Source: Candidatus Latescibacterota bacterium (GTDB taxonomy: Bacteria; Latescibacterota; UBA2968; GCA-2709665). Taken from it: DNA of 64,000 nt. Below the pieces are notes generated by a model. The model was not told the origin of the DNA and ran no database searches. It saw nothing but the letters and a program-made list of their open reading frames with translations. The stretch spans positions 2,560,001 to 2,624,000 of the forward strand of contig CBDDDZ010000005.1 of the NCBI GenBank assembly GCA_965226795.1. The letters are read 5' to 3'. Shown here piece by piece: positions 54,891-58,863 of the stretch. A program made the translations under genes and the position numbers. Within the stretch, counting starts at the first letter, position 1. Every line of letters starts with the position of its first letter.

Positions 54891-55823
54891 CTACTCCGGT
54901 ACGTCACGGCCGTCTCCTTCGGGTATGCGAAGCCCGCGATCGTTTCCAGATGCATTTCCAGGTACCTCAGAAACGCCGCAGCGGCACGTGATAGATGTCC
55001 GCCTTCGCGGCGCACCATACCCACCTGACGGGCCGGATAGCCCCGTCACTCGAAGCGCCGTCAGCCTGCCCGATCTCACTTCGTCCCGAACCGCCACTTC
55101 GGGCACAATTGCAATTCCCAGGCCGATCTCAACGAAGCGCTTGATCACTTCAATGCTGCCCAACTCCATCGTGACGTGCGGTTGTAACCCCGCCTCGGCG
55201 AACATCCGATCCATCAATGCTCTGCTTGTACTTCCCCTCTCGAGCATCAACATCGCACGGTCGCTCAGCGAATACAGATCGACCGTTTCCGTGGGGGCCA
55301 GGGGATGCGCGGGACTGCAGATGGCTACGTCTTCTCTGGTAAAAAAAGGCCTGGTCCTCACCCTGTGTTCGGTTACCGGCAGCGTCGCCAGCCCGAAATC
55401 CACCGCCCCCTCCAGCACCAGCCGCACCACCTCCGGAGACATCCGGTCGGTCAGGCGGATCTCGATTCCGGGATACGCCTGTCGAAACGCCTTTACCGCG
55501 GGAGGCAACGCATAGGCACAATTCGTATCGCTCGTTCCAATACTCAGTCGACCCGTTCGCAACTCGCCGAGGGCCGTCATGTCCTGCCGGATCTGCTCGG
55601 CCATCTCCAGAATGGCCTCGGCCCGCGCGAATAGAAACCGACCGGCCTCGGTCAATAGAATCTGCTTGCCGCGGCGTTCGAACAGGTCTTCGCCGAGTTC
55701 GTCTTCAAGTGCCTTCACCTGGAGACTCACCGCCGGCTGAGTCAGGAACAATTTCTCCGCTGCACGGGTGAAGCTCTTCTCGCGCGCCGTTTCCACAAAC
55801 CCCTTGAGCCGATCCAGATCCAT
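54891..55823 (-). pseudogene. LysR family transcriptional regulator with a +1 frameshift near 55025-55045
   Basis: SFTRAAEKLFLTQPAVS HTH. The typical LysR tail RQVGMVRR..LSRAAAAFL lies in the adjacent frame. Confidence 0.75.
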
Positions 55824-55910
55824 TTGTCGGTGCTCCGCTAACGCATTTGAGGCGCAGCGTTGTACCCGGACGCTATCTGTCGAAGCGATCGCGATATTTT
55901 TCAAAATATC

Positions 55911-55947
55911 ATAAAAATTCAATATAACAAAAATAAATTTTTATTAT
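55911..55947. promoter_or_regulatory. Tandem LysR-type operator boxes
   Basis: Two ATA-N9-TAT (T-N11-A) motifs at 55911-55925 and 55933-55947 in AT-rich DNA upstream of lysR. Confidence 0.6.
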
Positions 55948-56142
55948 TTATCCTGAATAATTCAAGAAAAAGGTAGTTTCCTTACCCAAGTCATTGTATT
56001 ATATTATGGTTACGCAAATAACCTTACAACAATGAACTGGGGGAAACTACCGTGTATGTTCAAGATAAACATCACAGGATGTCTTTCGCAAGTCTTTCCG
56101 GCAAACAGGTGGAAGCCGCCTTCGATGGGGGCATTCTGACCA

Positions 56143-56174
56143 GCCTGCCTGTGCGTGTACGCACGCAGACAGGC
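56143..56174. repeat. Palindromic mini-insertion 1 (30 bp plus duplicated GC, in frame, LPVRVRTQTG)
   Basis: GC-CTGCCTG-TGCGTGTACGCACG-CAGACAG-GC splits the LTS|DSG motif. Confidence 0.85.
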
Positions 56175-56689
56175 GACAGCGGGGTAATGCTGCTGCGGGA
56201 GGTGGCGTCCAAAATCGGCATTTTGTGTCGGATCATTGAGGCCATAACAGATCGTCGGCATGCAAGTTACGTGGATCACCCGACGGCGGACCTGGTCAGT
56301 CAGCGTGTTTTTCAGATGGCGTGTGGGTATGAGGATGCGAACGACTGCAATGCGTTACGCGGGGACCCCGGCTTCAAGACGGCCTGTGATCGGTTGCCCG
56401 TCACCGGTGCGGATCTGGCCAGTCAACCCACGATGAGTCGGTTCGAGAACCGGATCACCAGAGGTGACTTATATCGGATCGCGAAGGCCTTTGCCGATGG
56501 GTTTATCGCCTCGTATAAGAAACCGCCCAAAGCCATCCTGCTGGATATCGATGACACGGAAGATAAGGTGTATGGGTCTGGGCAGTTGTCGTTATTCAAT
56601 GCGTATTTTAAGAGTTATTGCTACCAACCGTTGCATATCTATGAAGGGCAAACCGGCAAGTTGATCACGACGATTCTGCGTCCTGGCGT

Positions 56690-56710
56690 GCCTGCCTGCT
56701 GCAGGCAGGC
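56690..56710. repeat. Palindromic mini-insertion 2 (19 bp plus duplicated GC, frameshifting)
   Basis: GC-CTGCCTG-CTG-CAGGCAG-GC; removal gives LRPGVRPSGKQIV and joins the two ORFs. Confidence 0.88.
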
Positions 56711-57124
56711 GGCCTTCGGGCAAACAGATCGTTTCGATTCTCAAACGGGTGGTCGCCTACCTGCGTCGAGCCTGGCCCAATGTGGCGATCCTGTTGCGTG
56801 GCGATTCTCATTTTTCGTGTCCGGAAGTGCACGCGTTGTGTGACACACAGAATGTGTATTTTGCCCTTGGACAAAGCGGCAACGCTCTGCTGCTGCCCCT
56901 GGCGCAACCCTTGATGGACCAGGCCAAAGCGCTGTATGCCGTTTCCGGCAAAACCGTGCGCCTATATAACGCGTGGGACTATCAGGCCAGCACCTGGGCT
57001 TCGCCACGCCGCATCATCTGCAAGGCGGAAGTAACACCGCAAGGAGACAATATCCGTTTCGTGGCCACCAACCTGCAACGCGCCAACCCTTCATTCATCT
57101 ACAAAACCGTCTATTGTGGACGCG

Positions 57125-57147
57125 GCCTGTCTGCCGGCCAGGCAGGC
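57125..57147. repeat. Palindromic mini-insertion 3 (21 bp plus duplicated GC, in frame, LSAGQAG)
   Basis: GC-CTGTCTG-CCGGC-CAGGCAG-GC splits YCGRG|RME. Confidence 0.88.
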
Positions 57148-57351
57148 AGGATGGAAGGCTTCATCAAGAATCACAAGACCTTTCTCCATTCCGATCGCAC
57201 CTCTTGTCACACCTTCGAGGCCAATCACTTCCGGCTCTTTCTCCACAGCGCCGCCTATGTCCTGTTGCAGACCTTGGCTGAAATGGGATTGCGCGGCACC
57301 AAGTGGACGAACGCCCAGTATAATACGCTGCAAAATCGCCTCTTGAAGGTC

Positions 57352-57383
57352 GCCTGCCTGCGCCGGATGCTCGGCAGGCAGGC
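57352..57383. repeat. Palindromic mini-insertion 4 (30 bp plus duplicated GC, in frame)
   Basis: GC-CTGCCTG-CGCCGGATGCTCGG-CAGGCAG-GC; removal gives RLLKVAGRV. Confidence 0.88.
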
Positions 57384-57741
57384 CGGACGCGTCTGTGAGA
57401 TGAAAACCAAAATCACGTTCCATCTGCCAACGGCATTTCCACTCAAACACCTCTATGCCAAGATCCTCTACAATCTGGCAACGTCCGTACCATAACGCAT
57501 CGTCCGGTTAAATCCGCCTTCACGTCTTGATCGACACCACCAAAACACAGGGAGACCTCTGTGCTTTTGACCGCGACAACAAGGTCAACCTGACGCCCCC
57601 GCCCTACCGTGTTACCAGCACGTGCCACTGAAGCGGCTTGAAAACTCCAAATCCGGCACAGCCAGGTCTTTCCTTCCGTTTCTCGATTCACTCGGAACCT
57701 GTTTCTGCTTCCTGAAACTGCAATCCGTGACGATTCATGAA

Positions 57742-57770
57742 TTGATCAGGTTAACATGGTTCGCTATAAT
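57742..57770 (+). promoter_or_regulatory. IS/host hybrid sigma70 promoter upstream of the purA-like gene
   Basis: TTGATC inside the IS right inverted repeat, exactly 17 bp from a host TATAAT. Confidence 0.65.
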
Positions 57771-57846: not shown

Positions 57847-58863
57847 GTGTGCGCAACCCTTGTTGTGGACGCGCTTTGGGGCGATTCCGGAAAAGGAAAA
57901 ATCTCCGCTTATACCGCCCTCAAACAGGAAGCCGCCTTCTGTGTACGCGCAGGCACCGGCACCAATGCCGGTCACAGCATCTACTTTGAAGACGGCTCTG
58001 AAATTCGGACGCATCAACTGTGCTGCGGTTGGTTACATTCCCGAACGCAGCTTCGAATAGGAAGCGGAGTCGCGGTAGACCCTGAAATGTTCCTCCGTGA
58101 AATACACAGCTACAAACTCGCCTCACGTACCGGGGTGGATCTGCGCTGTCCTGTGATTACGCCCGAACATCGCGCGCGTGAGGCCCGGGACAGGCATCTT
58201 GCTGACACTTTGGGCAGTGTATGCAGCGGCAGCGGCAGCGGCGCCGCCAGAGCGGACTTTGTCCTGCGCCGCGCCAGGCAGGCCCGCGACATCCCGGAAC
58301 TTCAGGATTTCCTCACCGACGTACCACGAGAAATCAACACGGCCTGCACACAGGGACGGGCCGTTGTCATCGAATCCAGCCAGGGCACACACCTGTCTCT
58401 TGCACTAACCACGGACTATCCCTACTGTACTTCCGACAATTGCACCGCTGTTGCCGCGGCGGACGATGCAGGGCTGAACTGGCAGTTTATAAAGGAAGTC
58501 ATCCTGGTGGTCAAGGCCGTACCGAGTCGCGTGGGCCCGGGTCCGCTGCCGTTTGAAATGTCTGCGGGTGACCAGGATCGACGCGGTATCGTCGAATACG
58601 GTGTCACTACCGGGCGACGCCGCAGAAAAGCCCACCGGATCTCATGGCGGTACCTGGAAGAGGCGGTTATGCTCAATGGCCCCACCCAGATTGCCCTCAC
58701 TTTCTGCGACCACCTTGACCCGGATGTGAGGGGCGCCCGCGCCCGTGAGGCGCTCACGGAACCCGTGCTGAAACTGATTCACGACGTTAAAACCCACACA
58801 GGCGTACCGGTAACGATTGCAGAAACGGGCAGGTATTTCGGTGACATTGTGGACCTATCCTGA
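57847..58863 (+). CDS. purA: Adenylosuccinate synthetase homologue, short archaeal-type (338 aa)
   Basis: WGDSGKGK, NAGH, E.SQG..LS, YPYCTS, SRVG.GP and EYG.TTGRRRR motifs. Confidence 0.85.
   Translation: MCATLVVDALWGDSGKGKISAYTALKQEAAFCVRAGTGTNAGHSIYFEDGSEIRTHQLCCGWLHSRTQLRIGSGVAVDPEMFLREIHSYKLASRTGVDLRCPVITPEHRAREARDRHLADTLGSVCSGSGSGAARADFVLRRARQARDIPELQDFLTDVPREINTACTQGRAVVIESSQGTHLSLALTTDYPYCTSDNCTAVAAADDAGLNWQFIKEVILVVKAVPSRVGPGPLPFEMSAGDQDRRGIVEYGVTTGRRRRKAHRISWRYLEEAVMLNGPTQIALTFCDHLDPDVRGARAREALTEPVLKLIHDVKTHTGVPVTIAETGRYFGDIVDLS

Follow-up and report, generated by a model that had tools for sequence, protein, structure and literature searches.

We found that an IS1380-family element in the window (the whole 64,000-nucleotide stretch of DNA that was analysed) contains a transposase gene that is split by four short palindromic inserts. 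The features are listed here, with ^ at the point of insertion.

55952..57750, plus strand: IS1380-family element (the host), 1799 bp, with ends CCTGAATAATTCA and TGAATTGATCAGG and flanks TTAT and TTAA
56052..57495, plus strand: IS1380 transposase gene, split by the four elements, with a frameshift at element 2; 447 amino acids once the elements are removed
56144..56173, minus strand (the bulged strand is the minus strand): element 1, 30 nt, T.G-wobble subtype, at site CCAG^CGA (LTS^DSG)
56691..56709, strand not assigned: element 2, 19 nt, a minimal, frame-shifting variant with no inner stem, directly after the invariant RPG motif
57126..57146, plus strand: element 3, 21 nt, at site CGCGG^CAGG (RG^RME), two codons ahead of the invariant Glu341 (numbering of an intact sister)
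57353..57382, plus strand: element 4, 30 nt, at site GTCG^CCGG (KVA^GRV)

The inserts had been described in a sequence-only reading of this DNA, and all four were found at the coordinates given there. Their pattern matches four times in the window and 0 times in 100 shuffles. As had also been claimed, removal of the 100 bp marked in that reading converts the gene from 1444 to 1344 bp, with a single terminal stop and 447 amino acids. Both halves of the transposase match PF13701 in a profile search, and the intact transposase of a sister copy matches NF033539 (IS1380) at 392.8 bits (cut-off 180). The host element has an NF033539/PF13701 transposase, terminal repeats and a 4-bp duplication, as expected of the IS1380 family; in sister copies TTAG or CTAG is duplicated at the flanks.

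We compared the four sites among sister copies of the insertion sequence (IS), since homologues carrying the same peptides would have pointed to ancestral sequence. Sites 1, 2, 3 and 4 were empty in 17 of 24, 22 of 25, 18 of 27 and 23 of 28 mappable copies, respectively. Thus, the inserted peptides are not ancestral. Support in sequencing data was partial. Elements 1, 2 and 4 were bridged gap-free by contigs from the runs of three studies, but element 3 was crossed by only 4-10 bases among the pieces listed; such contigs show presence only and may derive from sister IS copies.

The 30-mer of element 4 is found, identical, at unrelated sites in other genomes, with 9 loci in Candidatus Latescibacterota records. 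Holders of the window stretch include sponge metagenomes, and the host is presumably a sponge-associated member of the Latescibacterota. The IS is adjoined by a LysR regulator gene (window 54891-55922, minus strand) whose substrate-domain match ends at position 184 of 209 and whose tail looks out of frame. Downstream of the IS is a short adenylosuccinate synthetase gene (338 aa; window 57847-58863, plus strand).

Element ends and fold

Each insert had been thought to sit at a duplicated GC dinucleotide; the ends of the elements turned out to be different. The genome from which the window comes contains 86 strict and 101 relaxed matches to the pattern. After trimming, the bases flanking the 101 sites were G^C (85), A^C (8), G^T (5), A^T (1), T^C (1) and C^C (1). 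That is, 16 of 101 sites were not G^C. Exact empty alleles were found in this genome at two A^C sites (C2:529897, 2/4; C4:450952, 2/2) and at an A^T site (C5:3051343, 3/5); at an A^T site in another genome (G016) an empty allele was found in 0 of 4 genomes. Because exact empty alleles exist at sites other than GC, the element is CCTG...CAGG, inserted blunt between two bases with nothing duplicated, and the G^C sites merely mimic a duplication. In addition, the terminal C and G were kept in 77 of 79 stem-bearing elements, which argues against a 2-bp recombination core. On the exact non-GC empty alleles and the intact element ends, we reject both the GC duplication model and the 2-bp core model.

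The elements are 19-38 nt long with 7-bp arms, and their fold is polar. One strand reads CCTGYCT, an unpaired GC bulge, an inner hairpin and AGGCAGG. The inner stem was paired in 131 of 144 cells, with compensatory changes (24 distinct 33-mers), compared to a mean of 98 and a maximum of 118 in 5000 shuffles. It is absent from the 19- and 21-mers. At stem pair 5, the 42 orientable variants had C-G in 28 cases, T.G in 13 and C.A in one (p=0.002, a value that is overstated because the variants are related and not independent). Some elements sit inside other elements.

Most variants keep the reading frame. In a set of 68 variants that probably includes a few chance matches, 53 had a length that is a multiple of three and 51 had no stop in any frame; the other 17 had a stop triplet in some frame. 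All four elements in the window are stop-free in six frames.

Distribution and repeated insertion at the same bonds

It had been claimed that the elements are inserted only into the IS1380 transposase. This holds within the window but fails genome-wide. The 101 copies have many hosts, with 92 in mobile or repeated DNA, 4 in other genes and 5 in single-copy spacers. Based on flanks, Pfam and Rfam, 48 copies are in an unnamed repeat A, 10 in a repeat B, 16 in this IS1380 family, 3 in IS256, 2 in DUF772/IS1182-type transposases (one assigned by tblastn), 2 in group II intron domain I (RF02003) and 11 in low-copy REP-like repeats. The copies in other genes are in frame in a homocysteine methyltransferase, a solute-binding protein and HsdM, and out of frame in one short gene.

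The preference for mobile DNA was also seen when events were counted. Sites were multi-copy for 88 of 101 elements and for 251 of 2000 random G^C sites, a difference inflated by shared descent. Counting each combination of site and variant once, we found 9 events in 55 kb of transposase and reverse transcriptase (RT) coding sequence and 5 in 865 kb of low-copy non-coding DNA (28-fold, p=1.5e-8), or 17 in the 865 kb with low-copy repeats counted as non-coding (8-fold transposase excess, p=1.2e-5); these enrichments rest on 9 events and lean high because the gene caller was home-made and the transposase mask came from 15 queries. The motif is therefore not equally frequent in neutral DNA, the density of transposase events being 8-28 times that in non-coding DNA. 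None of the elements in this genome was in the second IS1380 family (14 kb, 10 copies), IS3, IS630, IS481 or RT genes.

Taken with the site census and the empty alleles, the event densities support the earlier proposal of a family of mobile, ultra-short, non-autonomous palindromes that have no enzyme of their own and are concentrated in mobile DNA. We regard it as near certain that the element is real and mobile.

Repeat A, also the main element host in G016, was filled in 44 of 68 parsed copies. The filled state was not linked to repeat subtype (nearest-neighbour concordance 0.553 compared to 0.536 +/- 0.047). This suggests that an element was precisely gained, lost or converted at one bond more than once. 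Both unnamed repeat families are non-coding, with ~77 copies of A and ~70 of B (e.g. C2:261100-261250 and C5:2152900-2153010). We also noted group II introns of ~730-770 nt, too short for an RT gene (L035:1338-2067, L070:1462-2226), the second with three mini-elements. Long segments duplicated between contigs (C2:1-18458, C3:1-60000, C4:788000-931000) are probably strain haplotypes and may slightly inflate some copy counts.

The idea that the window copy took four fresh hits is not supported. Among nine aligned IS1380 copies of this genome, three at different loci have all four elements, one has elements 3 and 4, one has element 3 and four are empty. Three of the empty copies are identical and intact. 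The four-element copies are mosaics (pN/pS 0.31-0.47, differences clustered), so part of the recurrence pattern reflects recombination; in copy C5_1914k, site 4 was acquired in a tract 93-98% like the window copy. The spread of four-element copies despite the frameshift suggests movement in trans or conversion.

Sites in the IS were also filled repeatedly. We compared 29 IS loci, consisting of representatives plus loci of anomalous length, so that filled copies are over-sampled. Sites 1, 3 and 4 had been filled anew in separate IS lineages and genomes; site 2 was filled in the clade of the studied genome only. Site 1 held four variants in three genomes: the 30-mer, two different 27-mers (one of them reversed) and a 19-mer. 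The 27-mer of one genome (G013) could be a descendant of the 30-mer. Site 3 held the same 21-mer in three IS lineages and a 33-mer in a fourth (G007), and the three lineages with the 21-mer were 96-99% like empty copies and 81-92% like one another. Where filled, site 4 held the 30-mer or, in G010, a different 21-mer in the opposite orientation with flanks 100% like those of an empty sister. In 132 genomes CCAG^element^YGA had 6 matches, all of them IS1380 site 1; the site-1 7-mer occurs 1,442 times in the studied genome, 181 of these non-coding. By analogy with the DDE family, Glu341 beside site 3 would be the catalytic Glu.

Further irregularities were seen at several IS loci. One copy (L006; G000:C5:1553150-1554672, G000 being the studied genome) is 99.3% identical to the intact ones but has more than 15 small deletions, either an assembly error or an unusual deletion process. 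In another comparison (L083:1645 with L082:1585-1736), the span between two mini-elements is missing from one IS copy, as if by arm-arm recombination. Beside the site-3 element there is a duplicated stretch of ~30 bp in one locus (L005) and a 4-bp deletion in another (L001), a hint of hairpin repair events.

Matches were found in 24 of 41 relatives and in 48 of 132 genomes of the class, at 0-253 per genome (reversed-pattern control, at most 1); a narrower pattern matched in 36 of 140 genomes of the phylum. In G016, four elements lie in one IS256 gene, and there are others in IS3, IS1182-type, IS1380 and HsdR genes. Elements also cluster, with 29 of 94 within 1 kb of another compared to 7.3 expected; host sequences cluster too. 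At least 137 viral and at least 130 metagenome stretches had matches. Many of the viral matches are chance or terminators; yet identical variants recur, element 1 twice. Among the matches listed, neighbour clustering around viral matches gave only shared phage genes. About 45 metagenome loci are mostly in ordinary or restriction-system genes, with 3 at IS91-type transposases, which speaks against an account confined to transposases.

One 8.8-kb metagenome contig (L417-L422) has at least six elements, several of them in frame, together with a DUF1156 and helicase defence cluster. Some DUF1156 methylase-like genes contain in-frame Y1 or GIY-YIG modules (L094, L095, L417, L512), and an HsdS gene contains DUF559 (L321). 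Nuclease modules appear to insert into defence genes.

We looked for what determines the choice of target. Among 210 non-redundant oriented sites from genomes, viral and metagenome contigs, position -1 was a purine in 79% and position +1 a pyrimidine in 87%; A^T accounted for 16 sites and A^C for 43. N^C sites exceeded G^N sites (76 compared to 35), indicating that insertion is polar, in front of C. Homology between the centre of an element and its target was no greater than in shuffles (4.83 compared to 4.80 +/- 0.07; 91 of 300 shuffles reached the observed value), which rules out a guide-like homology. Folds of empty sites, inspected by eye and with no statistic, had no consistent loop or stem position of the insertion point. 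We think it likely that insertion is site-selective beyond purine^pyrimidine.

Mechanism and candidate enzyme

Our preferred reading, to which we give a probability of roughly 0.45, is that these are 19-38-nt non-autonomous hairpins inserted blunt at purine^pyrimidine bonds in fixed sites of mobile DNA, likely by single-strand transfer in trans by an HUH enzyme of the Y1/RAYT type. HUH transfer would fit the blunt joints, the single active strand, the conservation of the bulge and cutting 5' of C, in the target as at either end. HUH enzymes, as described for IS200/IS605 and TnpA-REP, act on folded single strands and select short cut sites (PMC8266576, PMC6006769). The folded single strand would be the substrate, and one cut specificity, 5' of C, would serve excision at both ends and insertion. 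Hot sites may reflect local single-strand exposure or structure, and one element may draw others nearby. In the IS lineage of the window, four hits would have accumulated, the 19-mer breaking the frame; intact sisters, together with recombination among the copies, probably account for the later spread of this dead copy. The element would be a low-cost parasite of mobile DNA, with transposase damage a by-product. Several findings speak against the preferred reading: no circle junction or excision was seen in contigs (which show presence only), no enzyme gene is bracketed by the elements, and some IS families of the studied genome are not hit.

We hold more tentatively the broader proposal that the hairpins form a distinct class of minimal mobile elements. 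Each would be a single bulged hairpin of 19-38 nt. A dedicated enzyme, guided by some property of mobile DNA (its structure or its exposure as a single strand, not its sequence), would insert the hairpin without a scar at the same bonds of introns, repeats and transposase genes, in bacteria and phages alike. Such elements might be hyperparasites or editors of the mobilome.

It is possible, though unlikely, that there is no targeting. Insertion at nearly any purine^pyrimidine bond, with survival only in dispensable DNA, would be multiplied by hitch-hiking on ISs and repeats, by IS passage through many hosts and by gene conversion. The three mosaic four-element copies and the tract around site 4 of C5_1914k fit this notion. 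So do the frameshifting 19-mers common in transposases, the preserved frame in 3 of 4 hits in other genes, and the fact that host genes and spacers are hit as well. However, low-copy non-coding DNA had 5-17 events in 865 kb compared to 9 in 55 kb of transposase. Different variants, some reversed, were found at the same phosphodiester bond. In addition, bases specific to a lineage lie within 6-10 nt of the site-3 21-mer on either side, an interval too short for ordinary conversion.

A host-maintained defence that writes hairpins into ISs, introns and other invaders, as proposed for the repeat SMR-A (PMC3119063), is improbable. It would account for the 92 copies (of 101) that mobile or repeated DNA contains, for a site 3 two codons ahead of an invariant Glu and for a site 2 that shifts the frame. 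Moreover, many full-length IS1380 copies persist where a genome has 0-13 elements, and several high-load genomes have none or broken ones. The earlier suggestion of a defence against ISs nevertheless comes out weak. Most variants preserve the frame (53 of 68) or are stop-free in every frame (51 of 68), as are the four here; three identical intact sisters and a 10-copy second IS1380 family are untouched; and loads of 0-253 among congeners are parasite-like. The frame-preserving design, together with in-frame hits in host restriction genes, favours a parasite over a defence.

We also considered an RNA route: a group II intron or another RT would reverse-transcribe or reverse-splice a structured transcript, which would be inserted with no duplication. 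The T.G wobble on one strand suits RNA and single-stranded DNA alike, and RT genes occur alongside group II introns, which are hit in domain I. This route is quite improbable given the lack of centre-target homology and element ends that are sharp, invariant and tailless. In addition, no gap or joint excising an element was found among the matches listed for two RNA runs (in contigs, which show presence only).

Insertion of a mini-circle via a 2-bp GC core by a tyrosine or serine recombinase (integron-like or IS110/IS607-like) is very improbable. The 85 of 101 sites that are G^C, and a stem-bulge-stem shape like that of attC sites, recall such a reaction, but a 2-bp core is hard to reconcile with the intact ends of the elements and with exact empty alleles at A^T and A^C sites, and the attC-type R box is absent from the sequence. 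That the elements are micro-MITEs moved by the IS1380 transposase is largely refuted: the IS1380 ends also read CCTG...CAGG, so that the outer 4 bp are common to both, but IS1380 makes 4-bp TTAG/CTAG duplications at AT-rich sites and the elements make none, and three genomes with 132-253 elements (G001, G015, G016) have no match to this transposase, while G003 and G020 are the reverse.

A search for a mobiliser gave none. The proposal that a co-occurring enzyme gene would be flanked by the same repeats was not borne out; none of 31 Y1 loci and none of 30 GIY-YIG loci was bracketed by these elements. There was no sign of an autonomous partner with the same arms, unpaired arms being at background (318 compared to 365). 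Close pairs of elements in five genomes (G016, G001, G010, G007, G002) bracket transposases, repeats or ordinary genes, with no recurring small gene.

Several enzyme families were rejected. Y1 genes overall do not track element load, and one genome (G017) has 32 Y1 genes and no element. PaaX_M (PF20803) was found in 0 of 22 family genomes, a search in which divergent members could be missed. GIY-YIG has no match in the studied genome and does not track load; 20 of 21 family members do have a match, mostly in 630-700-aa UvrC-like frames, and its absence from the studied genome is possibly a loss or an assembly gap. IS91 Y2 does not track load either, and is intact only in the element-free G017 and G020.

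One RAYT gene remains as a candidate.

G000:C2:153938-154522 (L096:1243-1827): candidate RAYT, NF047646 at 103 bits (cut-off 80), with HVH and Tyr intact

Orthologues 77-91% alike are in five further genomes, each with 29-253 elements. Close orthologues were present in 6 of 8 high-load and 0 of 14 low-load family genomes (Fisher p=0.0004, for a load threshold set post hoc, a RAYT picked after the fact from five families tried, and kin that are not independent). Three high-load genomes lack it (G007, G015, G024). The gene is bracketed by inverted pairs of its own, different 19-nt REP (13 copies in the genome), the loop of which is itself an element target. Outside the class, elements (4) occur in G135 alone, together with a 49% match; the matches in G132 and G155 (46-53%) are accompanied by no elements. 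RAYT and load could both follow a shared gene pool, and we consider it doubtful that this RAYT is the mobiliser. The gene lies in a restriction-system island, a layout that is kept in five other genomes.

Relation to known repeats

We found no published description of this hairpin family in the open literature (subscription journals and several supplements lie outside this scope). To that extent the sequence-only reading, which had not recognised a characterised system, stands; yet the SMRs of Haloquadratum behave alike at larger size (PMC3119063). The hairpins are real, and are a variant of a known but unexplained sort of repeat.

The closest known elements are SMR-A and SMR-B of Haloquadratum walsbyi. 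As far as the account in PMC3119063 goes, these make no duplication and have no transposase and no known mobiliser, their terminal inverted repeats are unrelated to any transposon, they are strongly biased to mobile elements, and they were proposed as a defence. The hairpins likewise have terminal inverted repeats, no duplication, no transposase and a preference for mobile elements. In contrast, SMRs are 80-110 bp and archaeal, and the hairpins are 19-38 nt, bacterial and phage-borne; the targets given for SMR-A are subterminal palindromes in IS605/PATEs, for the most part not within the ORF (PMC3119063). Each element here is one bulged hairpin, mostly stop-free and of length 3n, and such hairpins are repeatedly found within the transposase ORFs of several families.

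The hairpins also resemble REPs and REPINs with their RAYT (TnpA-REP). Those are portrayed as imperfect hairpins of 20-40 nt in high, variable copy number, some of them intragenic, that insert into other palindromes with a single-strand signature (PMC3733652, PMC8266576, PMC6006769), and the elements here are also many-copy imperfect hairpins of 20-40 nt. Compared to REPs as described in these sources, the hairpins have no GTAG or CGTC foot, flanks that vary freely beyond purine^pyrimidine, pairing at the stem base at both ends and no cognate RAYT that they bracket. ISs are known to insert into REPs (PMC3184786); here the case is reversed, with hairpins inserting into ISs and into REP loops.

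A comparison to MITEs had been made from the start. Prokaryotic MITEs are similarly non-autonomous, with terminal inverted repeats (TIRs) and folds, but in the descriptions available they measure 50-800 bp, carry TIRs of at least 10-15 bp and make 2-10-bp duplications (PMC11602168, PMC3184786). The MITE-like reading fails on each count, since the hairpins are 19-38 nt with 7-bp arms and no duplication. Nor do they share TIRs with the resident IS1380, the IS whose ends were compared: only 4 bp are in common, and duplication and target differ. IS200/IS605 ends and PATEs are alike in lacking a duplication and in one-strand hairpin recognition, with a shortest form of 52 bp; as characterised in the same sources, PATEs have no terminal repeats, subterminal hairpins and a fixed target word, and the present elements consist of the hairpin alone and have a weak target word (PMC3119063, PMC6006769). 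Ssn (GIY-YIG), with NTS/SRM repeats, is presented as a small gene flanked by its repeat (PMC11893778), an arrangement that the hairpins lack, there being no GIY-YIG match in the studied genome and no bracketing at any of the 30 family loci.

The movement of REP-like and SMR-like repeats could be approached through this family, whose ends are exact and whose active strand is defined; there is a candidate enzyme, and one and the same bond can be compared between filled and empty alleles in many IS copies. The mechanism is thus open to direct study with oligonucleotides. An enzyme that inserts 20-36-nt hairpins scar-free, with a free inner sequence, would be a useful DNA-writing tool.

The Rickettsia palindromic elements (RPE) are longer than the hairpins here and CGTC-tagged, and they are not known to be biased to transposases. 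They are like the hairpins in lying in frame inside genes, where such palindromes are tolerated (as cited in PMC3733652). The elements described here explain puzzling broken transposases and inserts of 7-12 residues (LPAGRQ-like peptides) in proteins of uncultured bacteria.
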